Below are positions 24,704 to 57,301 of a DNA stretch of 64,000 nt, piece by piece. The notes below the pieces were generated by a model, which saw only the letters and a program-made list of their open reading frames with translations, was not told where the DNA came from and made no database searches. Position 1 is the stretch's first letter, and every line of letters begins with the position of its first letter. The position numbers and the translations under genes were made by a program. Origin of the DNA: a virus; the IMG/VR virus record IMGVR_UViG_3300027754_000075, positions 8,748 to 72,747 of that record; one strand, written 5' to 3'.

Positions 24704-26374
24704 ATGAAACAAACAACTTTAGATCTAAATGGACCTATTTTAGGATTTTCTACAAATCCTCAAGATGTTACGGTCAATAATGCAGGTATAGCAACATTTA
24801 TTGGAATTGCAACTGCGTATTTTATAAGTCAAAATCCAACAAATATATTTTCATCAAACACTGGAATTGTGACTCATCGTTGGTATGCTGCTGGAATTGG
24901 TGCTCTGTCTGATGGAGCCAATACAACTCTAGGGGCAACTCTCTCTGGTACTGCAACAACAACATTAACTGTGAGTAGTGCAACAAGTCCGACAACAAGT
25001 GGCATACAACTTTTTGTAAGTGCAGATTATGTACCATCTGCATATCAATCATCATCTCCAATTACTGCAGGGACTGCTCGTTCTACAGGAAATGCAATCA
25101 ATGAAATATTGTTCTCAAATACTGCAACACTAACAGTAAACCCCTTTGTATCAATTTCAGCACAACCATCAAGTTCTACAGTTGCTCAAGGACAAACAAC
25201 AACATTTTCGGTAACAGCAGCATCAAGTAATAATACTGATATTGCATATCAGTGGTATATTGGTGGTTCTCCAGTATCAGACGGAACCTCTGGTGGAAGT
25301 ACAATTAGTGGAGCAAATACAAACATTCTTACTGTTACTACTAGTTCCGGAACTCCTGCAGGAAATTCTAATGTTTTCGTTTCTGTTTCTCATCCAACTG
25401 CAGCAAATTCTCCTGTGGTTTCAAATACCGTGACTTTATCTGTTGTTGCCGCAAGACAAATTATTAATGTAGAAACTTTTAATCAAGGTAGTGGAGATGC
25501 ATCTTTATCAAGTTACAATATCTTTAATGGAGAATTGACTATTGAACCATCACCTGGAGCACCACAAGGAACCGCATTTTGTTTTTATGCCCCAGAAAGA
25601 GACGTTGAGGTGTTTATAGATTTATATGCTTCTACTGGTTCTAATAATGGTGGTTACGTTGCTGGACAAGGAGGAGTATCAACAATTAAAATGACATTAC
25701 AACAAAATGTTGAATATGTGATTTCCCCTTTACCTCAAGTATCTGGTGGTGCTGGTGTTTTTCTCTGGAGAAAAGCATCTCTCATTGCCTGCTGTGGTGG
25801 TGGAGGAAATGCTGGTAATGGTGGAAATGGTGGTGATGGTGGTGGAGTAAATGTTTCTGGACAAAATGGATCTGGTAGAGGTGCTGGTGCCGGAGCAATT
25901 AGAATTTCAGCAGGAAGTCTACCTACAACTAGTGGTATTTTTGGATCTCTTGTAGGTGGGACCATTCCCCTTGCTTCTGGAGATAGCAATGCAAGTGGTA
26001 CTTCTGGAGGAAGAGCTCTTGGGTGTACAAAGGGTGGTACTTCAGGATCCAATAGTTATTGGATGAATAGTGGATATTCTCCATGTCAAGATGTGGGAAG
26101 AACTAAATTAATCAATGCAAATGGTCAAGTAGTCCCTTCTAGCACTGACACAATTCAAAGGGGACATAAAGTTGGTTATGCTATTCGTCAAACTGCTGGA
26201 AGAGGATTAAATGGTGGTGGTAATGGAGCAAATGGTGCTACTGGTGGTGATGGTGGTGATGGTGGGGGGGGAGGAGGTGGTGGAAGTGGTTATACCGATG
26301 GTTCGATCACAGTGGTTGCCACACGTCAAGGTGGCCATTCAGGGCAACCAAGGGTTGTAATTAGAAAAGTATAA
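24704..26374 (+). CDS. Ig-like domains plus Gly-rich tip adhesin
   Basis: ISAQPSSSTV...FSVTA...YQWY Ig motif; GGGG-rich C-terminal half. Confidence 0.7.
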   Translation: MKQTTLDLNGPILGFSTNPQDVTVNNAGIATFIGIATAYFISQNPTNIFSSNTGIVTHRWYAAGIGALSDGANTTLGATLSGTATTTLTVSSATSPTTSGIQLFVSADYVPSAYQSSSPITAGTARSTGNAINEILFSNTATLTVNPFVSISAQPSSSTVAQGQTTTFSVTAASSNNTDIAYQWYIGGSPVSDGTSGGSTISGANTNILTVTTSSGTPAGNSNVFVSVSHPTAANSPVVSNTVTLSVVAARQIINVETFNQGSGDASLSSYNIFNGELTIEPSPGAPQGTAFCFYAPERDVEVFIDLYASTGSNNGGYVAGQGGVSTIKMTLQQNVEYVISPLPQVSGGAGVFLWRKASLIACCGGGGNAGNGGNGGDGGGVNVSGQNGSGRGAGAGAIRISAGSLPTTSGIFGSLVGGTIPLASGDSNASGTSGGRALGCTKGGTSGSNSYWMNSGYSPCQDVGRTKLINANGQVVPSSTDTIQRGHKVGYAIRQTAGRGLNGGGNGANGATGGDGGDGGGGGGGGSGYTDGSITVVATRQGGHSGQPRVVIRKV

Positions 26375-26408: not shown

Positions 26409-28298
26409 ATGGCTGCAGTAAATAAGAATTTCGTCATAAAAAATGGGTTAGAAGTAGATACTAACCTGATTGTTGCAGATTCTCAAACTAATAAAGTAGG
26501 TATTGGTACCACAGTTCCACAATACATTCTACACGTTAATGGTGGTATTGGTGTAACTAATGCTTATGTAAGTGGTATTGCAACGATTACAACTGGGATT
26601 GTTACCAATCTTACCAGTACAAATCTTAATGTAACTGGTGTTGGTACAATTGTAACCGGTAATATTACCAATCTAACAAATACCAATCTCAATGTAACTG
26701 GTATTGCAACGATTGCAACACTGAATGCAACTGGAATCGGTGTTACTAACTTTACAGTTTATAATAATCTTTCTATTGGTGGAATCTCTACATTCACCAA
26801 TGGGCCAGTACTGATTGGTTCTGGTACTTCTACAGGAACAGCATCACAGAGACTTCAGGTAACTGGTGGGACTTATGTTTCTGGTAATCTTGGTATTGGG
26901 TCCACAAATCCAACATCTGCTCTCTTTGTTGTTGGTGATGCAAGAGTCACTGGTGTTATTACCGCAACTACATTTAGTGGAAATGTAAATGCTGGTGTGG
27001 GAACCATTACCACATTGGGTTCTACAAGTGGAACCATAACAAACCTGACTGGCACTGCAGGAACGATTACTACCCTGAATAGTACATCAGGAACCATAAC
27101 AAACCTGACTGGTACTGCAGGAACCATTACGACTTTTAATAGTACTTCTGGAACCATAACAAACCTGACTGGTACTGCAGGAACCATTACGACTTTTAAT
27201 AGTACTAATTTAAGGAGCACCAATCTCAATGTTACTGGTATCAGTACATTAGGAACAGTAAAAATATCATCAGGTATTATTACTGCAACATCAGGAGTTG
27301 TGACTTACTTTGGTGATGGTAACTTTCTAAACCTAACCTCTAATCCAAGTAGAGGTATTGGTATTGGTACTATTGGTGGTGTTGTTGGGTATGCAGTCAC
27401 CTTTATTAACTTTAAAGGTGCAGGAGTTTCTACAACACAATATAACTCAAACACTGGTATTGCAACCATCTTCTTTGAGGGTGGAGGAGGTGGAGGTGGT
27501 TCAATCAGTATTAGTACCACAGCACCAATATCTCCTGGTTCTGGTGACTTATGGTACAGTCCAGATTATGGAAGAACTTTTATCTATTATGATGAGAGTG
27601 TTGTTGGATATGGTACTGATGCATTCTGGGTAGATGCTGCACCCTTTAATGTTGGTGTGATTACATCTACAGCATTTGCTCCTGCTTCGGCATCTGCTCC
27701 AAGTATTCATTTTGCTGGTGATGTTCAGACTGGATTTTTCTCTCCGAGTTCTGGAAATATTACTGCGGTTTCGGTTGGTTCATCAATACTGAATGTAAAT
27801 CCTTCTGGTATTATTGTAACCGGTGTGGTGACTGCAACCTCTTTTGTTGGTAATGGTAGTGGACTGACTGGTGCTGGTTCTACAGTATTCATTGATACTA
27901 CAACAAATCAAGAGTTCTTCCCCCTCTTTACTGCAACTACATCAGGAACTATTACTGCATCAGGTATTTCTACCTCTAAACTGAAATATAATCCTTCTAC
28001 AGGAACTATGACTGCAGTTGATTTTAATTCCACTAGTGATATAAATCTCAAAGAGAATATTCATACAATAGGAAATGCATTAGAAATCACAGAACAACTT
28101 CGTGGTGTTTCATTTGACTGGAAAGAAACTGGTAGAAGTTCTTATGGTGTGATTGCACAAGAACTGGAAGAAGTACTCCCAGAACTCGTAAAACAAGGTG
28201 AAGTTAAATCAGTCAACTATAATGGTATTATTGGAGTATTGATAGAAGCAATCAAAGAACTCAAGAAAGAAGTAAAAGAGCTTAAAATTGATAAATAA
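26409..28298 (+). CDS. tail fibre with C-terminal peptidase S74 intramolecular chaperone
   Basis: KNFVIKNGLEV N-terminus; VGIGT repeats; FNSTSDINLKENI...GVIAQE...VNYNG..GVLIEAIKEL. Confidence 0.85.
   Translation: MAAVNKNFVIKNGLEVDTNLIVADSQTNKVGIGTTVPQYILHVNGGIGVTNAYVSGIATITTGIVTNLTSTNLNVTGVGTIVTGNITNLTNTNLNVTGIATIATLNATGIGVTNFTVYNNLSIGGISTFTNGPVLIGSGTSTGTASQRLQVTGGTYVSGNLGIGSTNPTSALFVVGDARVTGVITATTFSGNVNAGVGTITTLGSTSGTITNLTGTAGTITTLNSTSGTITNLTGTAGTITTFNSTSGTITNLTGTAGTITTFNSTNLRSTNLNVTGISTLGTVKISSGIITATSGVVTYFGDGNFLNLTSNPSRGIGIGTIGGVVGYAVTFINFKGAGVSTTQYNSNTGIATIFFEGGGGGGGSISISTTAPISPGSGDLWYSPDYGRTFIYYDESVVGYGTDAFWVDAAPFNVGVITSTAFAPASASAPSIHFAGDVQTGFFSPSSGNITAVSVGSSILNVNPSGIIVTGVVTATSFVGNGSGLTGAGSTVFIDTTTNQEFFPLFTATTSGTITASGISTSKLKYNPSTGTMTAVDFNSTSDINLKENIHTIGNALEITEQLRGVSFDWKETGRSSYGVIAQELEEVLPELVKQGEVKSVNYNGIIGVLIEAIKELKKEVKELKIDK
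27000..27206 (+). repeat. 60-bp tandem repeat (about 3.5 copies, 30-bp sub-period)
   Basis: Encodes GTITT(L/F)NSTSGTITNLTGTA; a related unit occurs near 44070-44160. Confidence 0.9.
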
Positions 28299-28323
28299 AA
28301 CAAAGAAAACCAAGCAATTAACG

Positions 28324-28386
28324 ATGATGTTAAGTACAACTACAAACTATGAAGTCTTTGGTATTGTAAGTGGAGGTTTCTTCTAA
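28324..28386 (+). pseudogene. 20-aa remnant of a fibre gene (MMLSTTTNYEVFGIVSGGFF)
   Basis: The last 17 sense codons and stop are identical to the 3' end of 29384..30178. Confidence 0.75.
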
Positions 28387-28447
28387 TTATGGCACCTTTA
28401 TTATCACGACTTGGTTTAGGAAGAAGTGGTTTTGGATTTGGTAAGAA
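28332..28447 (+). repeat. 116-bp perfect direct repeat, copy 1
   Basis: Identical to 30124-30239. Confidence 0.95.
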
Positions 28448-29339
28448 CTCTGGTAGTGTCCCTTTTTCTGCTACTGGTGGCACAAAAACAACTTCTGGTT
28501 TGTATACAATTCATACTTTTACAACACCAGGTTCAGAAACTTTTACCGCATCCGGAAGACAAACTAATGTTGAAATTATTGCGGTAGGTGGTGGTGGTGG
28601 TGGTGGAGGAGGAGATTGTGGTCCACCAGATTTCCCATCAGCTGATGGAATATCAGGATCTTCTGGAGGAATATCAAAAGGAACTTTTACTTTCTCTCCT
28701 GGAAATTATACAGTATATGTTGGTGGTAGGGGAGATGCTGGGGGAGGACACAACACCGGAACAAATAATAGTGGATCTGGGTTTAGAAATAACGGCGGAG
28801 GAGATCCTGGTGGTCAAGGTGGTGATGGGAGTTCTGGAAATGGCGGCGGCGGAGGTGGTTTTTCTGGAGTATCGCAACCTCCTGGTCCAGGGGCTATTTT
28901 TTATATTGTAGCTGGTGGCGGCGGTGGTGGTGGAGGTGGAGGTGCTCCTGGTGGATCTCCAGGAGGTGGTAGTTCGAGAGGTGGTTCTGGTTCCTATGTA
29001 CCTGGTTCAACATCTGGACAAAATGGTCCAGGAAGAACTGGAGATAATGGTGGATTTGGCGGTGGTGGAGGAGGATATACTGGACCGGGTGTTATAACCA
29101 CAATTCCTGCTGGAGGTGGAACTAGAAATAATGGTGGATCAAATTTTACTAACCCTATAGGAACAATCTTAAGTACACATGGAGGTGGAGGTGGAACATC
29201 GAGACCAGCAGATGCTCCTCCTGCAACTTATCCAACAATACCTAGTCCTGCTGGATCTGGTGGTGGTGGTGCCAGTTGTGGAGGAGGAAGTGCTGGTATG
29301 GGGCAAGATGGAGTTATTGTAATACGATATTTAACTTAA
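28389..29339 (+). CDS. Gly-rich tip adhesin A (gp38-like polyglycine type)
   Basis: ATGGTKT...YTIHTFT, VGGGGGGG runs, GQDGVIVIRY end. Confidence 0.75.
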   Translation: MAPLLSRLGLGRSGFGFGKNSGSVPFSATGGTKTTSGLYTIHTFTTPGSETFTASGRQTNVEIIAVGGGGGGGGGDCGPPDFPSADGISGSSGGISKGTFTFSPGNYTVYVGGRGDAGGGHNTGTNNSGSGFRNNGGGDPGGQGGDGSSGNGGGGGGFSGVSQPPGPGAIFYIVAGGGGGGGGGGAPGGSPGGGSSRGGSGSYVPGSTSGQNGPGRTGDNGGFGGGGGGYTGPGVITTIPAGGGTRNNGGSNFTNPIGTILSTHGGGGGTSRPADAPPATYPTIPSPAGSGGGGASCGGGSAGMGQDGVIVIRYLT

Positions 29340-29383
29340 AAAAATGATAAATAATATTATACTAAGCCGAGTAATCAACGACG

Positions 29384-30178
29384 ATGGCAATTAAAATTTC
29401 AGGAACTACTGTTATCGATGACAGTAGGAATATACAAAATATAGGCATAGCCACCGCTACTACATTCGTTGGAGCACTTACTGGAAATGCGACTGGATTA
29501 TCTGGCACTCCTAATATTACTGTTGGTAATATTGTAGGTGTAGCACTTACATTATCTGGTAATCTTACGGTTAATGGTACTCAAACCATTATCAATACTA
29601 CTAACTTAGAAATCACAGATCCATTAGTCGGTATTGGTTCTGGTAATACCACAGACGCTCAAGCAGATGGTGATGGTATCCAGATTTATGGTGCAACTAA
29701 CAAGACATTAACATTTAATAATACCAAAAAAGCATTTGAGACTAATGTTGCTTGGGCACCAAACGAAACAAGGATTATTACAGGTGCAGAAAAAATCCAT
29801 AGACAATCTGGCAATACCGTAACACTTACCTATAACTCTTCATCAAGTTCTAATGTTGGATATACTACTAATCCAAGTGGTGATGTAACAGTAAATGTTG
29901 TAGGTATTCCAACATCAAGTGATTTTGACGATCATTCTATAAGTTTTACAGTTATCACAAGATCCACAGGAACTGCAAGAACTTGTACGGCAGTAACACT
30001 AAATGGTGTAACTGAAAATATTCGTTGGGCTGGTGGTTCTTTGAGTGGAGCACTTTCAGGTGTAACGACTGCAACAGGACACGCAATCTTTAGTTTTACT
30101 GGTATCAATACTGTTGGTTCTGCAAGTACAACTACAAACTATGAAGTCTTTGGTATTGTAAGTGGAGGTTTCTTCTAA
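29384..30178 (+). CDS. short tail fibre with C-terminal tip-docking domain
   Basis: MAIKISGTTVIDDSRN; LTVNGTQTIINTT.LEITD; ends FGIVSGGFF; paralog of 50201. Confidence 0.75.
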   Translation: MAIKISGTTVIDDSRNIQNIGIATATTFVGALTGNATGLSGTPNITVGNIVGVALTLSGNLTVNGTQTIINTTNLEITDPLVGIGSGNTTDAQADGDGIQIYGATNKTLTFNNTKKAFETNVAWAPNETRIITGAEKIHRQSGNTVTLTYNSSSSSNVGYTTNPSGDVTVNVVGIPTSSDFDDHSISFTVITRSTGTARTCTAVTLNGVTENIRWAGGSLSGALSGVTTATGHAIFSFTGINTVGSASTTTNYEVFGIVSGGFF

Positions 30179-30239
30179 TTATGGCACCTTTATTATCACG
30201 ACTTGGTTTAGGAAGAAGTGGTTTTGGATTTGGTAAGAA
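30124..30239 (+). repeat. 116-bp perfect direct repeat, copy 2
   Basis: Identical to 28332-28447. Confidence 0.95.
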
Positions 30240-31200
30240 AACTATTGCTGCTATTTTTAGTGCTTATGGGGCACAATTTCAAAACGCAAACTCTTTTAGT
30301 GATTCAAGCACATCTGCAATTGATGGCACAGCAAATTATGGGGCTGTTTTTTCCTATGGAGGATCAGAAGTTTTTATCTATGGTAATTTTTCCGCAGCCG
30401 ATATCCAAACAACGATTAATTTTTATACAGGACCAGGCACTCCAGCACCTTTGACTCCAAATATTGTTGGTTTGAGGGGATATAGACTTTATAGATATCC
30501 TAATAGTGCTGCTACTGGTAGTGTTGTTAAATTTACTGGTGAAGGGGTTGGAACTGATAATCATTTGATTCACGTAAGAGGTAATGGATCAACTCAAGGG
30601 TATGTAAGTGCTCCGCATCCAAATTGGAAAACATTAGATCCCGCAGGAGAATATACTTTACTTGCAAATAAAACTTTCTTTCAGGGTGGAATAACTGGTG
30701 TATTCTCTGGAAATAATACAACTATTGATAATGATGCACCGACAAGAAATAGGGTTAAATTATTAGCAGGGTCTGGGGGATCACCTGGAAGTGGTGATAT
30801 TGCAGGAGGACCTGCTGGGGGAAATGGATATTCTTTCGGAGCTGGTTGTAGAGGTGCTGGTGGGGGTGGAGGAGGAACTCAAAATGCTGCTGGGGGTGGT
30901 GGTGGCGGGCCGCACAGAACAGGAACTCCTCCATTACCCGGAAGTGGATTTTCTGGTGGAAGGGGATCTGGGGGTGCTGCAGGTAGTGGATATGATGGAT
31001 GGTATGGTGGTGGTGGTGGTGGCAGCGATGGTGGTGATTGCAGTGGTAGTGGGTACGGTGGTGGAGGGTCAAGTAGAGTTGATCCTGGACTTTCTGGAAC
31101 AAATTCATTTTACCCACCAGCAGGTCCTTCAGTTACTCCGTACTGGTACATGAATGTTCCTACTTGGGGAAGTGGTAAAATTATAGGACATAAATCATAA
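30181..31200 (+). CDS. Gly-rich tip adhesin B
   Basis: First 19 aa identical to 28389; GYDGWYGGGGG and GGGGSS motifs. Confidence 0.75.
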   Translation: MAPLLSRLGLGRSGFGFGKKTIAAIFSAYGAQFQNANSFSDSSTSAIDGTANYGAVFSYGGSEVFIYGNFSAADIQTTINFYTGPGTPAPLTPNIVGLRGYRLYRYPNSAATGSVVKFTGEGVGTDNHLIHVRGNGSTQGYVSAPHPNWKTLDPAGEYTLLANKTFFQGGITGVFSGNNTTIDNDAPTRNRVKLLAGSGGSPGSGDIAGGPAGGNGYSFGAGCRGAGGGGGGTQNAAGGGGGGPHRTGTPPLPGSGFSGGRGSGGAAGSGYDGWYGGGGGGSDGGDCSGSGYGGGGSSRVDPGLSGTNSFYPPAGPSVTPYWYMNVPTWGSGKIIGHKS

Positions 31201-31228
31201 CTTAAATTATTTTTGTTATTTTAGAATT

Positions 31229-31825
31229 ATGAAAACTTTTTTTGATTTTATATATGTGGGAGAAAATATTGTTTCTTCTTGTGATTGTAAAAATTTAATA
31301 AAATATTTTGAAAAGCATAAAGAACTTCAGGAACCAGGAAAACAAGGAAACCGTGATATTAATAAAGAATTAAAATCTTCAACAGATATTTGTTTTATTC
31401 CGGAAGATTCTTCAAATAAAGAATGCGTTAGACATCTTAACCCTTTTCTAAAATCTCTTGATAAAGAAGTTTTAGATGTTTATCTAAAAAGATTTGAATT
31501 AGGTCTCACTCAAATGGAAAAATGGTTGTTATGTCCATATTTTAACATTCAAAGATATTTTCCTGGAGAAGGTTATTTTAATTGGCATTCTGAATCATCT
31601 TCCAAGATGTCTGCGAATAGAAAGTTTGTTTGGATGTTTTATTTGAATAGTGTTAAAAATGGAGGAACAGAATTTTATCATCAAAATTTATGTACAGAAG
31701 CAAAGGAAGGTTCTTTGGTTATATGGCCTGCTGATTGGACACATTTGCACAGAGGACAAATTGGACAAAATGAAGTAAAATATATTTTGACCGGATGGTA
31801 TACTTTTAATGGAGAAGCTTCTTAA
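31229..31825 (+). CDS. 2OG-Fe(II) oxygenase (prolyl hydroxylase-like)
   Basis: IQRY.PG..YFNWHSE...WMFYLN...GGTEF...WPADWTHLHRG...KYILTGW. Confidence 0.88.
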   Translation: MKTFFDFIYVGENIVSSCDCKNLIKYFEKHKELQEPGKQGNRDINKELKSSTDICFIPEDSSNKECVRHLNPFLKSLDKEVLDVYLKRFELGLTQMEKWLLCPYFNIQRYFPGEGYFNWHSESSSKMSANRKFVWMFYLNSVKNGGTEFYHQNLCTEAKEGSLVIWPADWTHLHRGQIGQNEVKYILTGWYTFNGEAS

Positions 31826-32380
31826 ATGTTTAAAATAAGATCGGACAATATGTTTTCATTACCAATCTACACTGTTAGAACACAGAATTGGAAAGAAAAA
31901 AAGAAAAAAATAAAAAAAGAAATCAATTTTAAAAATATAGAAAAAAAAGAACTTCATACTTTTGGAACAGATAGGCAAAATGATGGTAAATCATATATAA
32001 AACATTTTAGTAATATTTTTAAAGAAGAATTGGATCTTTTTTTGGATGAAATAAAAAAAGAATCTATGATTATAACTGACATGTGGACTGTCAGATATAG
32101 ACACTCAGAATATCAATCAGTTCATAATCATGGTTCTTTTGGATTTTCCTCAGTTCTTTATTTGGATTTCAATTCAAAACTTCACGATACAACTAATTTT
32201 ATTTCACCATTTAATGATTTTTATACAGATCATTTAACTTGGTATGTTCCATATGATATTGAAGAAGGAGATTTTTTATTTTTTCCTTCAGTAGTCCTTC
32301 ACCATTGTACTCCAAATTTTTCCTTTATAACTAGAAGATGTATAGGATTTGATATTAAGTTTGAACTACCTAGGAGTTAA
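31826..32380 (+). CDS. putative 2OG-Fe(II) oxygenase (TIGR02466-like)
   Basis: QSVHNH...FSSVLY...EGD..FFPS..LH...RRCIGFD. Confidence 0.8.
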   Translation: MFKIRSDNMFSLPIYTVRTQNWKEKKKKIKKEINFKNIEKKELHTFGTDRQNDGKSYIKHFSNIFKEELDLFLDEIKKESMIITDMWTVRYRHSEYQSVHNHGSFGFSSVLYLDFNSKLHDTTNFISPFNDFYTDHLTWYVPYDIEEGDFLFFPSVVLHHCTPNFSFITRRCIGFDIKFELPRS

Positions 32381-32381
32381 A

Positions 32382-33077
32382 ATGACTTTTACTGATGAAC
32401 AAATAAAAATACAACAAAAAGAAAGATATCTTTCATGTTGGAGTCGGAATGAAAATTTTGACACAGATGGATATCTTTTTATTAAAAATTTTTTAGATCT
32501 AGAAAATTTAAATCATCCAAAAGATGTTATTCCGGGAATAAAAGAATATTTTGGAAACATAAATTTGTGGGATCATAGGAATGAAGATCAAGTACCAGGA
32601 TCCTCGTCAAGAATAAAATATCCTCCATATAAAAAATTATATTATGAAACGAAAGAAAAAATTGAAAATATATTAGGAAGAAAACTTTACACAACATATT
32701 ACCTTGATAGAATATACTACCCAAATCAACAACTTTATAAACATTTGGACAGAGATGCTTGTGAGATTTCTGTGTCTATTCACTTATCTTCAAATCTAAA
32801 AGAAAATTGGCCTTTTAAATTGGAAACAAGAACTTGGTATACGAATAAAAAAATGAAAGAACTTTGGAAAGAAGGTGAAGAAGTAGAGATTCTTTTCAAT
32901 CCCGGAGATGCAATAATTTACATGGGATGTGAAGTTCCACACTGGAGAGATCCTTTAAAATCGAAACATAATAAATTGAGTCGTATTTTTAAAAATGATG
33001 ATACATACTATCATCAATTATTTTTTCATTATGTTTTTTCAAATGGTGATAGGGCACATTATTATCGACATGTATGA
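32382..33077 (+). CDS. 2OG-Fe(II) oxygenase-like protein
   Basis: LYKHLDRDACEISVS...PGDAIIY.G...HWR...HQLFFHY; start moved to the ATG after AGGAG at 32372. Confidence 0.8.
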   Translation: MTFTDEQIKIQQKERYLSCWSRNENFDTDGYLFIKNFLDLENLNHPKDVIPGIKEYFGNINLWDHRNEDQVPGSSSRIKYPPYKKLYYETKEKIENILGRKLYTTYYLDRIYYPNQQLYKHLDRDACEISVSIHLSSNLKENWPFKLETRTWYTNKKMKELWKEGEEVEILFNPGDAIIYMGCEVPHWRDPLKSKHNKLSRIFKNDDTYYHQLFFHYVFSNGDRAHYYRHV

Positions 33078-33732
33078 AAAAAATAAAAAAAATATGGAAA
33101 AAACTTTAAAAGATTTAAATGAGACTTGGAAAGAAACTCCTTTTGAAAAAAAACACTTTTTAGATACTTATGATAATGAATTTTTTAAATTTAAAAATAA
33201 ATTAGATTTAAGAATTCTAGAACTTGGAATTGATAAAGGCGGATCTCTTGAACTGTGGGAATCTTATTTTTCTAACTTATCCTTATTAGTTGGAGTTGAA
33301 AAAGACAATTCAAAAATAGAGGGAAATTTTGGTGATAAAATCAGAATTGAAATAGGAGATTTGAGTAAAATAGAATTTTATGATAGAATAAAAAGATATG
33401 GATCATTTGATATTATTATTGATGATGCATCACATAAAGCATCGGATATAATTTTATCTTTCAATAATCTTTTCCCAATCCTTTCTGTTGGTGGAATATA
33501 TTGTATTGAAAATGTTTATTACTCAGGAACTGGAGAGTACAATAACCAATCCCTTCAAAAATTTATTCAAGATTTGATTATAAATGCAAATGGAATTACT
33601 GATTGTTTAGATTTGCCCGAGAGAATGAATCAATTTTCTTGGTGGATAAAATCTATTCATATAGAAAATCAATTAATTATTATTAGAAAAGGATTATGGA
33701 ACTATGAGAAAAGACATTCTGGTTGTAGATAA
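33070..33732 (+). CDS. class I SAM-dependent methyltransferase (sugar O-methyltransferase-like)
   Basis: ILELGIDKGGSL.LW...FDIIIDDASH...GGIYCIE; start is 33070 or 33094. Confidence 0.8.
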   Translation: MYEKNKKNMEKTLKDLNETWKETPFEKKHFLDTYDNEFFKFKNKLDLRILELGIDKGGSLELWESYFSNLSLLVGVEKDNSKIEGNFGDKIRIEIGDLSKIEFYDRIKRYGSFDIIIDDASHKASDIILSFNNLFPILSVGGIYCIENVYYSGTGEYNNQSLQKFIQDLIINANGITDCLDLPERMNQFSWWIKSIHIENQLIIIRKGLWNYEKRHSGCR

Positions 33733-34228
33733 CTTTATAGGACCAACAGATCTTGGTGCAGCATATTTAGATTTAAGAAACAATTTTTATTGGAATGTTG
33801 CTTCAGATGCTCCAGGATCAAATATAAGAAAGGCTGCTTTTGGAAGAGGATTTGAGCATCAAGATCTTTTAAAAGCATATGATACTATTCCTATGGTAAG
33901 TTATTTTGATAATTACATTAAAAGCAGAGGATTGCCAAACTGTGGGTCATTAAGACAATTTTATGTCAATTGTGTTAAACCTGGAGATAAATTTAACTAT
34001 CATGAAGATAGATCAGGAAGCACTGTTTTGATATACGTAAACCCAGTATGGAAATGGCATTGGGGATCTGGTACAAAATTTAAAAAAGGTTTTAAAACTT
34101 TTATCGTTAAACCAAAACCAGGGAGAATGATTTGTTTTCCTGGCAAAACAAAACATAAACCCATTCCCCCAAATTTTTGGTATAATGATTTTGGTAGATT
34201 GTCTATTGCATTTCAATATGAGTTATAA
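33704..34228 (+). CDS. 2OG-Fe(II) oxygenase
   Basis: YHED...TVLIYVNPVW...WGSGT.F...PKPGR...H...RLSIAF. Confidence 0.8.
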   Translation: MRKDILVVDNFIGPTDLGAAYLDLRNNFYWNVASDAPGSNIRKAAFGRGFEHQDLLKAYDTIPMVSYFDNYIKSRGLPNCGSLRQFYVNCVKPGDKFNYHEDRSGSTVLIYVNPVWKWHWGSGTKFKKGFKTFIVKPKPGRMICFPGKTKHKPIPPNFWYNDFGRLSIAFQYEL

Positions 34229-34830
34229 TTAAATAATTGATAATCTTTGAAATAATACTCTCGAATCCAACTTTTTACTTCATCCTCACATTTTAATTTA
34301 TCATAAAAATCTGTTGGTAATCTATCATAAGTATATCTTTTACATTTAACTGACAAATTAACATTAAAATTTTCACTTATCCATTGCAAAAAATTTTCAC
34401 CAAATCCATCTTCATATTTCCATACTTTTGTAGTTGGAGATAAAAATTTATACTGATCTAAAAACCAATTTGTTTCATAACTTGTTATCTCTTTTTCAAA
34501 AGTTAAGTAACTGAACAAATTTTCTTTGCTTGAAAGTATAAAATCTATATTAATTTTATTATTATGCAAAACTTGACTTATTGAAGAAATGAATTTATTA
34601 TATGGATCTCTAACCACACAAAATTTTGGCAAATCTTTTACATTTAAATAATAATCATATAATGGATAATGTAAATGATGTTGGTTTACTCCTCTAATTT
34701 GAGATTCATCTTTTTTTGAATTCCATTCATTTGCAATAAATAATTTTATGACATGTCTACCTGCAGTTCTTGGTATATGAACAAAATATAATTCTCTTTC
34801 TTTATCAACAAGTTTGGGCATCAGATACAT
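34213..34830 (-). CDS. sulfotransferase (Sulfotransfer_2-like)
   Basis: YFVHIPRTAG (5'-PSB), VVRDPY..FISS (3'-PB), YYFKDYQLFNY end. Confidence 0.8.
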   Translation of the reverse strand: MYLMPKLVDKERELYFVHIPRTAGRHVIKLFIANEWNSKKDESQIRGVNQHHLHYPLYDYYLNVKDLPKFCVVRDPYNKFISSISQVLHNNKINIDFILSSKENLFSYLTFEKEITSYETNWFLDQYKFLSPTTKVWKYEDGFGENFLQWISENFNVNLSVKCKRYTYDRLPTDFYDKLKCEDEVKSWIREYYFKDYQLFNYNSY

Positions 34831-34850
34831 TAAATAATTATAGATTATAT

Positions 34851-35480
34851 ATGGATATAAAATTACATTCTCTTTTTCCGACCGCTGTTATTTCAGTTCT
34901 TGATAATAATTTTAAATTAACTCAAGAAGAAAAGAAAGTGATTTGGAAATATAAATTAGATGAAAGTGATAATTATCACAACTGTTATGCAAGTAAAAGT
35001 GGTAGAATATTGGAAGATCGTCGTCTCAAACGTTTAAAAAAACATTGTCAACATTATCTTGATTTATATGTAAAAGATATAATGAAGTGCGATAATAAGA
35101 TTCAAATTACAAATTCATGGGGTAACTATTCTTTCACGGGCAATTGCCACAGAAATCATCGTCATTCAAATAGTGTTTTAAGTGGTATTTATTATGTGCA
35201 ATGTAATAATTCAATTCCTATTTTACAATTTGAAAGTCAAACATCTAGATATTTCTTAGAATATAGAGTTGAGGAACAAACTGTTTTTAATAGTTCAACA
35301 TATCAGATAAAATTAGAGGATGGTATGTTAGTAATTTTTCCATCACACATCTGGCATTCTGTTCCCGAAAATAAATCATCTAATTGGAGAATATCCATGG
35401 CATTTAATTCTTTTCTTTTGGGAGAAATTGACAATTATGGATATGAAGAATTGAAAATTAAAAGCACCAATCATGTCTAA
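34851..35480 (+). CDS. putative 2OG-Fe(II) oxygenase (TIGR02466-like)
   Basis: LFPT...ITNSWGN...HRHSNSVLSGIYY...IFPSHIWHSV...RISMAFN; start reassigned to MDIK. Confidence 0.85.
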   Translation: MDIKLHSLFPTAVISVLDNNFKLTQEEKKVIWKYKLDESDNYHNCYASKSGRILEDRRLKRLKKHCQHYLDLYVKDIMKCDNKIQITNSWGNYSFTGNCHRNHRHSNSVLSGIYYVQCNNSIPILQFESQTSRYFLEYRVEEQTVFNSSTYQIKLEDGMLVIFPSHIWHSVPENKSSNWRISMAFNSFLLGEIDNYGYEELKIKSTNHV

Positions 35481-36108
35481 TTCTACAATATTCCCTCTTT
35501 TTTCAACGCCAGTATATAAAACAGAAATTTTATTTAATGAAAAAGAACAATATTTTTTAAAAAATAAATTAGATAAAATAAATTATTTAAAATATGACTC
35601 TGATAATGGATATTCAACAAAACAAAAAAATATATTAAATATATCTTCTCTTTTTAATATAAAACGCCAAATAAATGATCATGTTAATAAGTATGTTTTT
35701 GAAACTTTATGTTTAAACAAAATTGATTTGTACATAACTTCTTCCTGGATAAATCTTCACCAAAAAGGAAATTATGCACAACCACATATACATCAAAATT
35801 CTATTTTTAGTGGAGTTTTATATTTAGAAGTTCCAAACGAAAATTGTGGACAAATTACCTTTCACTTTCCTTTTCAATTACCAACCTTTACATCAAATAC
35901 AATTTATCCAGGAGTAAAAAATAGGAATATATACAATTCACACTCTTGGAGTTTTAATCCAAAATCAGGAGATTTATTAATTTTTCCTTCTCATCTAATG
36001 CACGATGTTGGAATAAATCAATCAGATCAAAACAGATATAGTTTGTCATTTAATTATTTTGCTAGAGGTAAAATATCAGGAGAAAAAACAAAAGAATTAT
36101 ATATTTAA
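35473..36108 (+). CDS. putative 2OG-Fe(II) oxygenase (TIGR02466-like)
   Basis: LFSTP...SSWIN...HIHQNSIFSGVLY...IFPSHLMH.V...RYSLSFN. Confidence 0.85.
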   Translation: MSNSTIFPLFSTPVYKTEILFNEKEQYFLKNKLDKINYLKYDSDNGYSTKQKNILNISSLFNIKRQINDHVNKYVFETLCLNKIDLYITSSWINLHQKGNYAQPHIHQNSIFSGVLYLEVPNENCGQITFHFPFQLPTFTSNTIYPGVKNRNIYNSHSWSFNPKSGDLLIFPSHLMHDVGINQSDQNRYSLSFNYFARGKISGEKTKELYI

Positions 36109-40819: not shown

Positions 40820-41953
40820 ATGGCAAAGTTAGTCAGTGGTCGGTTACCAAGATTAAATGTAGGAATTGCTTCTTATAGTGAAAATCAAACAACACTATCA
40901 GTTGTAGGGATTTCATCTTTTCAGCAAGTAGTTCTAAATGGTTCAGTCAGTACTGGTACAACTACTGGGACTTCGGGGCAATATTTAAAATCTGTTGGAA
41001 TAGGTGTAACTTGGGCATCATTTCCAACATTAAGAACCGGAAATGTTTTTACTGCAGGAGTTGCACAAACTTCCTTTGCAGTTTCTTATAATGTTGGTTT
41101 TGTTGATGTTTATATAAATGGTGTTCGTTTAACAGACAGTGAATTCACCGGAACAAGTGGAACTTCTATTGTTCTTAATGAATCTTGTTTTGGTGGAGAA
41201 ACAGTAGATATTCTTGCGTATAACACTACAAGCACTGGTTCGGGAGGTGGAGGAATCAGCACTGAATCTCAAACTTTAAATAATGTATTAGGACTTGGGA
41301 ATACCTCATCCAATGGGATGAGTGTTGGTGTTATTACTGCAACTTCTTTTGTTGGAAATTTAACAGGAACAGCAACCTATGCGACTAATGCTGGTATAGC
41401 AACTTATGCGACTAATGCTGGTATAGCAACTTATGCGACTAATGCTGGAATAGCAACTTATGCTACTAATGCTGGTATAGCAACAAATGCTCAAGGTTTA
41501 ACTGGTACTCCTAATATATCTGTGGGTATCGTTACAGTAACAGACTCTCGTATTCAATCTGTTGCTGAAAAGACAACACTTGTGAATGGTAACACAGTAA
41601 GTCTTGTTTATAACACTGGTGGTGGTAATATTGCAATCTGTACCAATCCAAGTGGTGATATTACACTGAATGTAACTGGTATCCCTACTGATAGTACATT
41701 TGATAATTACTCACTTGCCTTTAGTGTGATTGTATCAAATACAGGAACAGCAAGAAGTTGTACTGCAATTAATCTGAATGGATTATCAAGAACAATTAAA
41801 TGGTTTGGTGGTTCTCTTGCAGCAGCAATCACTGGCGTGACTACATCAAATGGATATGATAGTTATAGTTTTACTGGAATCAATACTGTAGGTTCTGCAA
41901 GTACAACTGCAAATTATATTGTACTTGGAAGTGTAAATGGAAGTTATAGATAA
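40820..41953 (+). CDS. short tail fibre with C-terminal tip-docking domain
   Basis: DVYINGVRL domain; ATYATNAGI repeats; C-terminal domain homologous to 29384 and 50201. Confidence 0.75.
   Translation: MAKLVSGRLPRLNVGIASYSENQTTLSVVGISSFQQVVLNGSVSTGTTTGTSGQYLKSVGIGVTWASFPTLRTGNVFTAGVAQTSFAVSYNVGFVDVYINGVRLTDSEFTGTSGTSIVLNESCFGGETVDILAYNTTSTGSGGGGISTESQTLNNVLGLGNTSSNGMSVGVITATSFVGNLTGTATYATNAGIATYATNAGIATYATNAGIATYATNAGIATNAQGLTGTPNISVGIVTVTDSRIQSVAEKTTLVNGNTVSLVYNTGGGNIAICTNPSGDITLNVTGIPTDSTFDNYSLAFSVIVSNTGTARSCTAINLNGLSRTIKWFGGSLAAAITGVTTSNGYDSYSFTGINTVGSASTTANYIVLGSVNGSYR
41371..41484 (+). repeat. 27-bp tandem repeat, four copies
   Basis: agcaac(c/t)tatgc(g/t)actaatgctgg(t/a)at; a related array lies near 47770-47930. 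Confidence 0.9.
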
Positions 41954-42714
41954 TGTCTCCAATTTTAACTAGAATTCCATATAGCAAGGGACTTGGTTCA
42001 AGAACTTTTATTGCAGTTAGTGTTCCTATTATTTCAAACGGATTAATATTATCCCTAGACGCAGGAAATGCTGCTTCTTATCCTGGTTCTGGAACTACTT
42101 GGACTGATGTGAGTGGCAATATTAATACCGGAACTCTTGTGAATGGTGTTGGGTATTCTGCGAGTAATGGAGGTGCTTTGACTTTTGATGGGACGAATGA
42201 TTATGTTCTTGCAAATAATACAAATTTGAATTCTTTAAGTTTAACTTCTAGATTTTCAAACACAAGTGTTTCTCACTTTTCTTGGGTTTATCCAACTGGT
42301 GCTGGTGTATTAGTTTCTGAATTGGGACAAACAGCACCAAATTCAGGATACCACGATAGCAATATTGAAATAAGTGCAGGTGGGGCATTTAGTTTTTCAA
42401 CTTGGCACAATGGTCTTACAAGTAAGGTAGTTTCTTCAAATCAATCATTTAATATTTGGTATTATGTTGGATTTACTTATGATGGAACAACTTTAACTGC
42501 TTATATAAATGGTTCATCAATTGGAACAACCACTTTTGCAAGAGTGCCACCAAGTCAAACTCATTATGCTTTATTTGCTACTGATGCTACTAATATGGGA
42601 ACAGGAGGTTATGGTGTAGGAAGATGTGCTGCTTTTTCTGTATACAACAGAGCACTCACAGCAGCAGAAGTCTCACAAAACTTCCAAGCACTTAGAGGAA
42701 GATTTGGAGTTTGA
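41953..42714 (+). CDS. LamG/concanavalin A-like lectin tip protein
   Basis: GLILSLDAGN..SYPGSGTTWTD; FDGTNDY; WYYVGFTYDG...YING; YNRALTAAEV.QNF. Confidence 0.85.
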   Translation: MSPILTRIPYSKGLGSRTFIAVSVPIISNGLILSLDAGNAASYPGSGTTWTDVSGNINTGTLVNGVGYSASNGGALTFDGTNDYVLANNTNLNSLSLTSRFSNTSVSHFSWVYPTGAGVLVSELGQTAPNSGYHDSNIEISAGGAFSFSTWHNGLTSKVVSSNQSFNIWYYVGFTYDGTTLTAYINGSSIGTTTFARVPPSQTHYALFATDATNMGTGGYGVGRCAAFSVYNRALTAAEVSQNFQALRGRFGV

Positions 42715-42817: not shown

Positions 42818-45800
42818 ATGGCATTTAACAGAGATTTATCCCAACTCGCAAATTTTCTAGAAGTTAATTCTGACGGAACTTTCATTAATATTATACCATC
42901 AACTTCTCAAACAAATTTAGGTATTGGTACAAATAACCCAACAGCAAAACTTGATGTTCTTGGTAATGCAAGAGTTTCTGGTAATTTATCTGCAACTAAT
43001 ATTAATGCTTCTGGTATTGTTACTGCTACTTCAGGTTTTGTTGGTGCTTTAACTGGTTTAGCTAGTTCTGCTACTCAACTTGCAACTGGAAGAACTATAG
43101 CAATTACTGGAGATTTAACTTATACTAGTGGGTCATTTAATGGTACTGGTAATGTAACAGGAACAGGAACATTAGCAAACACTACAGTTACTCCTGGTTC
43201 TTATGGGTCTTCAACAGAAGTTGCTACATTTACTGTTGACTCCAAAGGTAGATTAACTGCTGCTGGTACCGCATCTGTTGGAACTGCACTTACAGTTGCT
43301 GGTGACTCTGGTTCAGAAAACATCAGTCTTCTTAGTGAAACTCTTACGATTTCTGGTGGTACTAACTTAACTTCATCTGCTGCATCTAATACTGTTACTG
43401 TTAACCTTGACCCAAACATTTCTTTAACAAGTGTTGTTGCATCTGGTATTATTACTGCTACCAGTGGTTTCTCTGGTAATGTAACTGGAAACTTAACTGG
43501 TAACATTAACTCTTCTGGAGTTTCTACAGTTACTTCACTGAATGCAACAAACATTAATGCATCAGGTATCGTAACTGCTACTCAATTTAAAACTGGTGCA
43601 TCAGGATCTGCAATTGGAATTAATACCAATACAATTTCTGGACCTGCAACAATTACAATTGACCCTGCTGCTGTTGGTGATAATACTGGATTAGTTGTAA
43701 TCAAAGGTGACCTACAGATTGATGGTACTACAACCACCATTAATTCTACAACCTTAACTGTTGATGATAAAAATATTGTTCTTGGTTCTGGTGCTGCTAA
43801 TGATGCAGCTGCAGATGGTAGTGGTATTACTATTGAATCCGGTAATGGTAATAAAACCTTCCAATTTGAAGATACTGGAGACAACTTAGGTTCTTCAGAG
43901 AACTTGAATGTTGCATCAGGTAAAGTTTATAAAGTTAATAATACTGAAGTTCTTTCTAATAATACTTTAGGAAGTGGTGTCGTTAACTCGTCTTTGACTT
44001 CTGTTGGAACTCTTACTAACTTAAGTGTTGGTAATGTTAATTCAAGTGGTATCGTTACTGCTGTTACAGTCAATAGCACTAATGGAACTATTACAAACCT
44101 GACTGGTACTGCAGGAACTATAACCACATTTAACAGTACTAATGGAACCATTACCAATCTGAATGCAACTAATATTAATGCATCTGGTATTATTACTGCT
44201 ACCAGTGGTTTCTCTGGTAATGTAACTGGAAACTTAACTGGCAACATTAACTCTTCTGGAGTTTCTACATTTACTTCACTGAATATAACTAATATTAATG
44301 CATCAGGTATTGTAACTGCTACCAGTGGTTTCTCTGGTAATGTAACTGGAAACATTAACTCTTCTGGAGTTTCTACAGTTACTTCATTGGTTGCAACAAA
44401 CATTAATGCTTCTGGTATCATAACTGCTACTTCAGGTTTCGTTGGCGCTTTAACTGGTTTGGCCAGTTCTGCTACTCAACTTGCAACTGGAAGAACTATA
44501 GCAATTACTGGAGACTTAGCATATACCAGTGGATCATTTAATGGTACCGGTAATGTGACCGGAACAGGAACATTAGCAACAGTTAACTCTAATGTTGGAT
44601 CCTTTGGTTCACAAACTTTAATCCCTGTTGTTACTGTTAATGCAAAAGGATTGGTGACTTCAGTAACAACAGCAGCAGTTGGAACTGCATTAACAGTTGC
44701 TAGTGACTCTGGTTCAGTAGATATTGAACTCTTAACAGAAACCTTAACAATCTCAGGTGGAACTAATCTTACCTCAGTTGGTTCTGGTAATACTCTTACT
44801 GTTAACCTTGATAATAATATCTCACTAACAAGTGTTGTTGCCTCTGGTATCATAACTGCTGCTCAATTTGTGACTGGTGCATCAGGATCTGCGATTGGAA
44901 TTAATACCAATACAATATCTGGTCCTGCAACGATTACAATTGACCCTTCTGCTGTTGGAGATAATACCGGTGCAGTTAGAATTAAGGGTGACTTATTTGT
45001 TGATGGTACTCAATTTATTGTTAACTCCACAACTATAGAACTTGCCGATTTTATTGTTGGTATTGCTTCTACTGCTACTTCAGATATACTTGCGGATGGT
45101 GCGGGTATTAAGATTGGACCAGACAATACTTTAACTTACGATCATACTAATACATCATTAAAGTCGAGTGAAAACTTTAATCTTGCTTCTGGTAAGACTT
45201 ATAAGATTAATGGAACCGATGTTCTTTCTAATAATACTTTAGGAAGTGGTGTCATTAACTCGTCTTTGACTTCTGTTGGAACTCTTACTAACTTAAGTGT
45301 TGGTAATATTAATTCAAGTGGTATTGTAACTGCTACTACATTTGTTGGAGCACTCACCGGAAATGTATCTGGTAATATTAACTCTTCTGGAGTATCAACT
45401 GTTACTAATTTAAATATTGGTGGTTATGTTTCTATTGCAAATACTACTGGTGTTGCAAATCAGATTCTTTCTTCTACTGGAGTAGGAGTAAGTTGGAAAA
45501 CCTTTAATGACCTATTACCACAAACAAGAACAACACAAACCTTTACTGCGACTGCAAACCAAACATTATTCAGTTTTGTATATAATGTAAACTTCCTTGA
45601 TGTATTTGTGAATGGTGTTAAGTTATCTTCTGGAGAATTCACTGCAAGTAACGGTAGTACAATCACTCTCTCTGAAGGTGCATTTGCGAATGATACTGTT
45701 GAGTTTGTTTCTTATGCAACTCTTGGTGCTGGTACAGGACAAGTTAGCAGTCTGAATGATTTAACTGATGTTACACTTACTGGTATTACAACAGGAAACC

Positions 45801-48776: not shown

Positions 48777-49184
48777 ATGGCACTTAAAAGAACTAAAATA
48801 CTCAATGTTCAGTCCATAACAGGTATTGCAACTGTTGGTATTTTGACTGTTGGTATTACATCTACTGCTGGTGGTGTTGGTATTGCCTCTACGTCTTACC
48901 TTCGTGGTGTTATAATGCATAATACTGGTCTTGCGACTTGTACCTCATCACTTTACATTTATCCAACTGGAACCTCAACGCCTGTGACTGGTGTTGGTAT
49001 TACCGCACATCGTCTTGTAAGAGTAGACCTTGCATCTAATGAGACTTTCTTCTTTGAGACAAACTATCCAATCGTAATGACTGGATCTGATAAGATTGTT
49101 GTAGAGGTTACTGCTCCCAATAGTGGTGGTGTTGGTATTGGTAGTGTCGTGAACTATCAAATCCTTGGCGATACTGATATTTAA
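48777..49184 (+). CDS. small virion structural/adaptor protein
   Basis: Beta-rich, GVIMHNTG...NETFFFE..YPIV; precedes a Gly-rich tip. Confidence 0.6.
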   Translation: MALKRTKILNVQSITGIATVGILTVGITSTAGGVGIASTSYLRGVIMHNTGLATCTSSLYIYPTGTSTPVTGVGITAHRLVRVDLASNETFFFETNYPIVMTGSDKIVVEVTAPNSGGVGIGSVVNYQILGDTDI

Positions 49185-49195
49185 GAGGTATAAAG

Positions 49196-53544: not shown

Positions 53545-53548
53545 TACT

Positions 53549-57294: not shown

Positions 57295-57301
57295 AAAAAT
57301 T

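Follow-up and report, generated by a model that had tools for sequence, protein, structure and literature searches.

Two tail-fibre tip genes share an exact 116-nt junction repeat and a putative docking peptide in a freshwater myovirus related to T4-like cyanophages

The window analysed here is a 64,000-nt stretch of viral DNA (IMG/VR record IMGVR_UViG_3300027754_000075, positions 8,748 to 72,747) and is part of a 72,747-nt linear metagenome contig that is estimated to be 35% complete. Its source is a freshwater myovirus related to T4-like cyanophages; the contig encodes a gp5-like baseplate hub/lysozyme (PHROG 33098, E 1.3e-180) whose best isolate matches are the Synechococcus phages Bellamy and S-SM2 (44% identity). 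Parts of 27900-31500 are contained in 20 public sequencing runs, 9 of which hold at least half of the sampled words; where a habitat label is given, all are freshwater or lake metagenomes. The element under study is an exact direct repeat of 116 nt in the tail-fibre region, which sets the same 19 codons at the start of two tip genes, tipA and tipB; tipB follows a complete fibre gene, fib264, and tipA stands behind a 20-codon open reading frame (ORF), the mini-ORF, that is probably what remains of a deleted fibre. The features of the locus are listed below; handles beginning with L denote related loci, those beginning with X denote sequencing runs, and the classes of fibre ends and tip peptides are taken up further on.

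26409-28298, + strand: o629, the fibre gene upstream (629 aa), whose product has an intramolecular-chaperone domain at its C-terminus (Pfam Peptidase_S74, E 1.3e-16; many PHROG tail-fibre families); the promoter-like motif overlaps the gene's final codons and stop.
28289-28298, + strand: TGATAAATAA, which includes the late-promoter-like ATAAATAA (28291-28298), with the mini-ORF ATG 33 nt further on (from the motif count).
28299-28323, + strand: leader J1, a diverged copy of the leader of MAIK-type fibres (local alignment with J2, shuffles).
28324-28386, + strand: relic mini-ORF, made of a start, two odd codons and the final 17 codons of a class-I fibre; the same junction is found in L073 and in runs X2, X3 and X6.
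28332-28447, + strand: repeat copy 1, 116 nt (exact-repeat comparison).
28372-28376, + strand: GGAGG, Shine-Dalgarno-like, within the relic and 12 nt ahead of the tipA ATG.
28389-29339, + strand: tipA (316 aa), a 19-aa putative docking peptide and a glycine-rich body (AlphaFold2 model, fold match, homologues).
29340-29383, + strand: intergenic J2, with TGATAAATAA at 29345-29354 and the conserved leader of MAIK-type fibres; identical in L075 and covered in runs X2, X3, X6 and X8.
29384-30178, + strand: fib264 (264 aa), ending ...NYEVFGIVSGGFF (PHROG 36132, E 2.7e-18; homologues at 65-75% identity), the only complete class-I fibre in a scan of the contig.
30124-30239, + strand: repeat copy 2, 116 nt (exact-repeat comparison).
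30181-31200, + strand: tipB (339 aa), the same 19-aa peptide and a different body with a glycine-rich C-terminal half (13 homologues, hhalign).

The two copies of the repeat are identical at 116 of 116 positions and lie 1792 nt apart, exactly where the original prediction had placed them. Identity breaks at once on both sides, as the left cannot be extended by a single base and mismatches on the right are immediate; in the repeat search the pair at 28332/30124 grows to 146 nt at 90%. This is the longest exact repeat (at least 20 nt) of the window, the runners-up of 81 nt and 68 nt both being tandem-type arrays, and it is present exactly twice in the 72,747-nt parent contig; the expectation for a 116-mer repeated by chance in 64 kb is effectively zero. 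Read in frame, each copy is composed of 1 nt, 17 sense codons (STTTNYEVFGIVSGGFF), TAA, TT, 19 tip codons (MAPLLSRLGLGRSGFGFGK) and 2 nt, and these frames bear out the earlier claim that it spans the 3′ end of the fibre and the first 19 codons of the tip, the tips diverging after GFGFGK. The proteins part at residue 20, where tipA has N and tipB has K. The start of tipB lies 2 nt after the fib264 stop; the mini-ORF, whose 20 codons encode MMLSTTTNYEVFGIVSGGFF, also ends 2 nt ahead of its tip (ATG at 28389), as had been claimed. The GGAGG before tipA has a twin before tipB at 30164-30168, and GGAG lies likewise in the last fibre codons of class II and class III junctions. A de Bruijn assembler keeps a repeat longer than k as a single node, so that small true differences between copies may be collapsed; the perfect identity is therefore identity as assembled, behind which a few real differences could be hidden.

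Copy 1 was further said to lie behind a late-promoter-like motif and a leader resembling that of the intact fibre; both are present, and the score of the local alignment between J1 and J2 was reached by 39 of 2000 shuffles. The 10-mer TGATAAATAA recurs 1056 nt from its first copy, and the mini-ORF-tipA cassette with one copy of the 10-mer makes up one 1056-nt unit. Copies of the 8-mer ATAAATAA number 16 on the + strand against one on the - strand; 9 of the 16 sit 23-58 nt upstream of + strand gene starts, including those at 28291 and 29347, the latter 37 nt ahead of the fib264 start. A T4-type late promoter consists of a box like TATAAATA, set a short and constant number of nucleotides upstream of the late (structural) genes; the distribution of the 8-mer fits such a promoter, and its activity as one is predicted. 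A scan of 27800-31500 for intrinsic terminators returned 4 sites against 2.5 expected, none of them within an intergenic gap. When compared with the phage record collection, neither the DNA of 28100-31400 nor the tipA and tipB proteins found a match, and for fib264 the matches were partial only and confined to 4 records, from two phages; records close to the window's own genome may be missing from that collection.

Neither tip is assigned to a family by Pfam at E <= 10, both lying below every threshold, and the Gly_rich_2 family PF21722 finds nothing at E <= 1 in the six-frame translation of the contig; 4 of the 9 proteins aligned with tipA do match PF21722 (best E 2.6e-22). Homologues of tipA are found in L071, L067/L072, L073, L074 and L075. 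The AlphaFold2 model of tipA has a predicted local distance difference test score (pLDDT) of 49.8 overall with a confident β core, and structural comparison (VIA) matches it first to the Pam3 fibre gp24 (7ypx_A), at Z 11.7 and 27% identity with an rmsd of 2.7 across 172 residues, then to the Bxb1 tail tip (9d93_Qa) at Z 11.0 and to ALK glycine-rich domains at Z 8.8-9.5; after these Z drops to 3.2. A Foldseek search of the Protein Data Bank (PDB) with the same model places ALK/LTK glycine-rich domains in its top rows (best E 1.7e-3), with no match at E <= 0.001; a β-sandwich joined to a glycine-rich lattice is thus what this low-confidence model of tipA displays. TipB is modelled at a pLDDT of 44.0, and its best fold match is to unrelated glycosidases (Z 5.4); its ESM Atlas neighbours include viral clusters with PF12810 or PF21722 at scores of 0.85-0.88, which lie below 0.9 and serve as leads only. 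The alignment profiles of tipA and tipB gave 0 matches at E <= 1 against PDB sequences. TipA is read, from its model, as a putative receptor-binding module of the Pam3 gp24 kind that lacks the helical dock.

In the loci compared, one peptide carries unrelated bodies and one body carries different peptides. The body of tipA (83% aa identity) sits behind a class-III peptide, MAPLFTGLKFGFGRSAGEG, in L018/L067, after a class-III fibre. The tipB body has 13 homologues (48-91% identity) which all align from GAQFQ onward and differ at the N-terminus, where class I, class III and class IV-like forms occur beside three or more further ones, six kinds or more in total. One of them, a 65% homologue in L069, follows a class-III-like fibre and precedes the same oxygenase gene as in the window, and two more bodies stand behind the window's own peptide in L073 and L076. 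Across a nucleotide alignment of seven junctions the bodies all diverge directly after the GFGFGK codons, and profile-profile comparison of the tipA and tipB families with hhalign aligns only the first 16 columns, which are the peptide. The repeat may best be viewed as a homology patch for exchange between genomes, a role akin to that put forward for the glycine-rich motifs of gp38. Directly downstream of tipB, at 31229-36108, lies a run of 2OG-Fe(II) (2-oxoglutarate, iron) oxygenase-type genes, orthologues of which adjoin tips in L069, L070 and Bellamy.

The window contains five fibre and tip pairs in addition to the orphan tipA, and related phages have more. In the pairs other than fib264-tipB the fibres are paralogues of fib264, each with a second gene immediately after it:

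40820-42714, + strand: fibre of 377 aa ending ...NGSYR (40820-41953) and tip of 253 aa starting MSPILTRIPYSKG (41953-42714), from the ORF scan.
48777-49849, + strand: class-IV pair, a 135-aa protein ending NYQILGDTDI (48777-49184) and a 217-aa glycine-rich tip (49196-49849).
50201-52008, + strand: class-II pair, a 293-aa fibre ending ...GVVNGGFR (50201-51082), an ATGA overlap and a 309-aa glycine-rich tip starting MSPIISRTGFSLGFGRRR (51079-52008).
52096-54547, + strand: class-III pair, a 482-aa fibre ending ...KNGGFRQGTVGV (52096-53544), a 4-nt gap and a 332-aa tip starting MAPLFTGSKFAFG (53549-54547).

Fibre ends with the ORF that follows them were collected from loci L003-L076 and the window, giving 26 non-redundant junctions. 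In all 26 the tip start falls between -4 and +15 nt relative to the fibre stop, a closeness imposed by the collection rule, which accepted starts from -26 to +38 nt. Fibre end and tip peptide are of matched class at 20 of the 26 junctions: class I fibres are followed by class I peptides in 8 of 10 cases, class II go with class II in 4 of 4 and class III with class III in 6 of 7, and the class-IV pattern is seen in 2 of 5, the three misses being IV-like by eye. No junction (0/26) joins a fibre of one named class to a peptide of a different named class. This matching is consistent with specific docking and is no proof of it. Pairs of the same kind occur in the isolate Bellamy, where gp53 (ending ...KNGGFNQGSVGV) precedes the glycine-rich gp54, gp50 precedes gp51 and gp43 precedes gp44. 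A single fibre can also be followed by several tips; in L018/L067 two tips come after a class-III fibre, their junctions alike over 73 nt but for 2 mismatches and their peptides distinct at 1 residue, and L008 has one fibre and then three tip-like ORFs. Both arrangements, as read from gene order, offer a precedent for several tips per fibre. Several fibre paralogues of the same class are found in related contigs.

Some neighbouring genes touch on this design. The tip of the 40820-42714 pair is not glycine-rich (12% Gly), and a similar N-terminal peptide may there carry a different sort of binding domain. A 556-aa protein at 24704-26374 (PHROG 24848, E 3e-125) has weak Ig-like matches and a glycine-rich C-terminal half ending ...RVVIRKV, and looks like fibre and tip in a single polypeptide. 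A stretch of Bellamy (L157, 45239-55499) has gp43/44, gp50/51 and gp53/54 of the same design, all annotated as hypothetical. A 1265-aa ORF at 42818-46615 is full of long internal direct repeats, with exactly repeated blocks 27-63 nt long, offset by 741-1401 nt, and a 609-aa protein with a glycosyltransferase match (PHROG 2170, E 1.6e-30) lies among the structural genes at 57245-59074.

The arrangement ahead of tipA can be compared with that of relatives. In L016, L021, L024, L078, L082 and L084 an o629-type gene is directly followed by a fibre starting MAIK (MAIR in L082, MSIK in L084), the two being separated by a promoter motif that overlaps the stop and by a conserved leader; J2 of the window is that leader. 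At J1 the promoter overlaps the o629 stop in the same way, and is followed by the leader, in diverged form, and then an ATG. In L071 an intact long fibre ending ...NYELFGIVSGGFF precedes a tipA homologue (85%), J2 and a MAIK-type fibre; the earlier proposal that the fibre of copy 1 is reduced to a relic fits this order, and copy 1 is probably a scar left by the deletion of an upstream fibre. On the simplest history, two class-I modules in tandem (fibre1-tipA and fibre2-tipB) would then have lost the body of fibre1, leaving the late promoter, leader, start codon and 17 terminal codons before an intact tipA, and copy 2 would be the working junction of fib264 and tipB. At the beginning of L071 (1-3051) an o629-like N-terminal part and a fib264-like C-terminal part are fused in a single frame of 1017 aa or more; by this fusion frame fibre shafts, too, recombine between neighbouring genes.

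The frame of the mini-ORF has a prior chance of one in three of being kept, and alone it is no evidence of selection. Retention for coupling, as originally proposed, is one candidate, in which the mini-ORF would bring ribosomes to the start of tipA; the GGAGG inside it offers a simpler candidate reason for the retention of the last codons. The scar recurs in L073, identical over the 202 nt upstream of the repeat, with all 3 differences inside the repeat and a different body behind it; because the same scar stands before a different body, it has outlived at least one later body exchange. The tipA homologue of L073 stands alone behind AGAGG, without a fibre relic. Upstream of it, at 3648-3792, lies a remnant ending ...GAGQSGVTIYLI and a stop, like the 3′ end of another tip, and two non-structural genes (385 and 471 aa) are located between the two tips of this locus. 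The closest relative of o629 is found in L077 (97% aa), where the downstream region is entirely different and lacks tipA, fib264 and tipB; the spot downstream of the o629-type fibre appears to mark a hypervariable island.

It is hypothesized, with a probability of roughly 0.6, that these genes are pairs of fibre and tip with class-specific docking peptides and exchangeable bodies, that copy 1 is a deletion scar and that both tips are mounted on fib264. Each fibre gene would be followed within -4 to +15 nt by its separately encoded tip, the first 19-25 residues of which would form a Gly/Phe-rich docking peptide specific to the class of the fibre C-terminus; the remainder would be an exchangeable receptor-binding body, in tipA one that resembles Pam3 gp24's TNF-like domain and its glycine-rich one. 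The repeat would be a junction module made of a fibre end with GGAGG, a stop, 2 nt and the docking peptide, and its sequence would double as a homology patch for body exchange between phages. Both tips would be made late and mounted on fib264, on different fibres or together on one trimer, and the virion would carry two receptor specificities on one fibre type. Because the peptide of tipA is identical to that of tipB, and apart from the relic fib264 provides the sole class-I fibre end in the 72.7-kb contig, mounting of both tips on fib264 is considered the most likely arrangement. When three chains of fib264 (residues 120-264) were modelled together with three of a tip (residues 1-80) from custom alignments, the complex prediction scored 0.01, which speaks neither for nor against docking.

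Several points weigh against this reading. Binding of tip to fibre and the expression and incorporation of tipA are inferred from the genes. Class matching could stem from the linkage of adjacent genes, and the classes were defined after the same data had been viewed. Both tip models are of low confidence, the Foldseek search with tipA gave no match at E <= 0.001, and neither tip itself has a Pfam family. J1 and J2 have diverged yet the repeat is perfect, which needs gene conversion, a recent recombination patch or collapse by the assembler. A further class-I fibre could exist elsewhere in a genome of which the contig is estimated to represent 35%. Contigs of X2 and X6 join 28270-28300 to 29364-29402 at 90% likeness, with shorter sides of 30-43 nt, a weak indication that genomes without the cassette co-occur and that tipA is dispensable in nature. 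The ratio of non-synonymous to synonymous change (dN/dS) is 0.45-0.64 for tipA against three homologues and about 1.0 for its first 134 codons against L073, as compared with 0.27-0.29 for fib264 and 0.19 for tipB against L069, where synonymous sites are near saturation; such fast evolution of tipA would fit either diversifying selection or relaxed constraint.

The same figures bear on the rival that survives best, though it is judged unlikely: that tipA is an orphan in the course of being lost, its fibre deleted and the tip no longer assembled or useful, with the mini-ORF and repeat as the neutral scar of a recent illegitimate recombination. Relics are common in these loci, as the tip remnant in L073 illustrates; the dN/dS of tipA (0.45-1.0) is above that of the fibre, cassette-less genomes appear at the X2 and X6 joints, and L077 lacks the whole tipA-fib264-tipB region. 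Neutral decay is, however, opposed by a frame of 316 codons that has stayed intact through slippage-prone GGN runs, by the retention of the promoter motif at its usual distance, the GGAGG and a docking peptide identical to that of tipB, and by the L073 scar, where the arrangement lasted through at least one more exchange.

It is more improbable still that tipA is functional on another class-I fibre encoded in the unsampled 65% or so of the genome, so that the two tips would not share fib264. The estimated completeness of the contig leaves room for such a gene, and related contigs carry several fibre paralogues of one class; yet the 19 residues of the peptide, and the 57 nt that encode them, are identical in tipA and tipB, any socket for the former should accept the latter, and every other fibre and tip pair seen is adjacent.

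An assembly artefact, in which two strain haplotypes (fibre-tipA and fibre-tipB) were joined through a shared 116-nt node, is the outcome that the original prediction named as fatal to it and is rated very improbable. The source contig is a metagenome assembly, the repeat exceeds many assembler k values, strain variants coexist in the same runs, and the repeat cannot be bridged by Logan contigs (k=31), of which those from four runs other than the likely source (X2, X3, X6 and X8) were checked for the junctions. Such contigs end 30 nt inside the repeat from either side, as is expected of a k=31 graph if, within one sample, two different sequences adjoin the repeat on each side. The junctions themselves recur. 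X2 and X3 each hold a 217-nt contig over 28145-28361 with 0 differences, which takes in the end of o629, J1, the start of the mini-ORF and 30 nt of the repeat, and X6 covers 28205-28361 with 1 difference. The end of tipA, J2 and the fibre start are covered by contigs at 29294-29581 (X2), 29294-29599 (X3), 28426-29393 (X6) and 28977-29466 (X8), so that the o629-J1-repeat junction is present in 3 of the 4 runs and the tipA-J2-fibre start junction in all 4. On the far side, X2 and X3 have a 6186-nt contig over 30210-31500, starting 30 nt before the end of copy 2 and running through tipB. Two separate metagenome assemblies agree: L073 matches 28130-28446 at 99% over 317 nt, from the o629 end through J1 and the mini-ORF into the repeat, and L075 has the tipA end, J2 and the fibre start. 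These two unique junctions cannot arise from a simple haplotype bubble, and given them the order in the contig is the sole path that uses all segments; since the odd junctions recur in other runs and contigs, a chimera is unlikely.

Least probable of all, and hardly to be credited, is a programmed host-range switch by recombination at the repeat, by an invertase or by a diversity-generating retroelement: two alternative tips do share a perfect repeat and T4-type phages recombine efficiently, but the repeats are direct rather than inverted, the two copies, being identical, have no adenine-specific differences, and six-frame searches of the contig, itself a fragment, found no match to reverse transcriptase (RVT_1, PF00078) or serine invertase (Resolvase, PF00239), so that the fragment has neither the inverted repeats and serine invertase of an invertase-type switch nor the reverse transcriptase and adenine-variable repeats of a retroelement. 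The original prediction had allowed that a crossover at the repeat could switch, delete or amplify. Switching falls away, since the copies are direct and the tips cannot be exchanged between them; deletion or amplification would be the outcomes. By geometry a crossover would remove the tipA body, J2 and the whole fibre body and leave the mini-ORF before tipB, or would duplicate the 1792-nt unit; the deletion would thus take tipA together with the fibre body, and the amplification would multiply both. The deleted form would hold no junction that is new.

The preferred reading, of paired fibres and tips with class-specific peptides, has parallels in known systems. Phages Mu and P1 have invertible host-range segments with two alternative fibre tips, inverted repeats and a serine invertase; the present locus likewise has two alternative tips in one genome, and differs in its direct repeats and in having no Resolvase-family gene in the contig. 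Phages of Klebsiella and Salmonella and coliphages with branched fibres or dual tailspikes mount several receptor-binding proteins per adaptor or fibre, through folded anchor domains and at distinct docking sites. The conserved N-terminal docking part and exchangeable C-terminal specificity part are common to those systems and, putatively, to the tips described here; two proteins with an identical short peptide would, unlike the proteins of those systems, use the same site. The glycine-rich domain of ALK/LTK and PF21722 are also related in kind, as members of the tipA family match PF21722 and the tipA model matches the ALK fold; tipA and tipB themselves differ from the PF21722 family in lying below the Pfam threshold.

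The closest structural parallel is gp24 of the freshwater myocyanophage Pam3 (PDB 7ypx), which is built of a helical domain for docking at the N-terminus, a TNF-like domain and a glycine-rich one with distal loops proposed for host recognition, and is likened by its authors to S16 gp38 and ALK (PMC9608196). The modelled tipA body matches its TNF-like β-sandwich, which extends into a glycine-rich lattice with variable distal loops; at the sequence level the comparison yields no match to any PDB chain. Pam3 gp24 is a whole fibre that attaches to the baseplate and trimerises by means of its N-terminal helical bundle, and it depends on the chaperone gp25. The tips described here, by contrast, lack a helical domain, start with a Gly/Phe-rich peptide of 19-25 residues and follow a separate fibre gene. 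The gp38 adhesins of T2/T6/S16-type Straboviridae resemble the tips in that the adhesin gene lies just downstream of the distal fibre gene, with an N-terminal part for attachment to the fibre tip and a fast-varying specificity part, and their glycine-rich motifs are proposed as recombination hotspots for modular shuffling (PMC12032242). Separate encoding directly downstream of the fibre gene is also found here, at a distance whose range was set by the collection rule. Gp38 is monomeric and has a folded N-terminal attachment domain, a β-helix domain and a three-layer polyglycine sandwich (PMC12032242); the tips would instead attach by a short peptide, and the body of tipA is TNF-like in its model. 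Pfam and PDB sequence searches detected no relationship to gp38, and the S16 gp38 structure is absent among the fold matches listed for tipA, which does not exclude a likeness.

Separately encoded fibre-tip adhesins and glycine-rich receptor binders of the Pam3 type are already known; new are the short and putatively class-specific peptide, the occurrence of several tips behind one fibre and an orphan tip by which the model can be tested. No account was found of separate tips with class-specific N-terminal peptides in T4-like cyanophages, in a literature search outside of which subscription journals and supplements lay; among the papers listed on cyanophage tail fibres of glycine-rich or TNF-like type, as judged by title and the opening of the abstract, the only fibre structure studies found were two Pam3 papers, and no paper was found that mentions PF21722. 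A wider generalization is offered tentatively, as possible though short of even odds: T4-like cyanophages would use a plug-and-socket code, in which at least four peptide classes of 19-25 residues address adhesins of unrelated folds to matched fibre ends, tips with the same plug share a fibre type and give virions of mixed specificity, a form of bet-hedging, and the junction, of conserved nucleotide sequence, is a built-in crossover site through which phages in the same host cell could exchange receptor specificities without a dedicated recombinase.

Cyanophage host range shapes picocyanobacterial populations, and the receptor-binding proteins of T4-like cyanophages are largely annotated as hypothetical, as are gp43/44, gp50/51 and gp53/54 of Bellamy. 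If the reading proposed here is true, the class-specific peptide would be a rule by which to find the adhesins, pair each with its fibre and read host-range exchange from metagenomes. The orphan tipA with its unchanged plug would be a natural test of two specificities on one fibre, and in laboratory phage-host pairs the same plug may be of use for exchanging one binding body for another.

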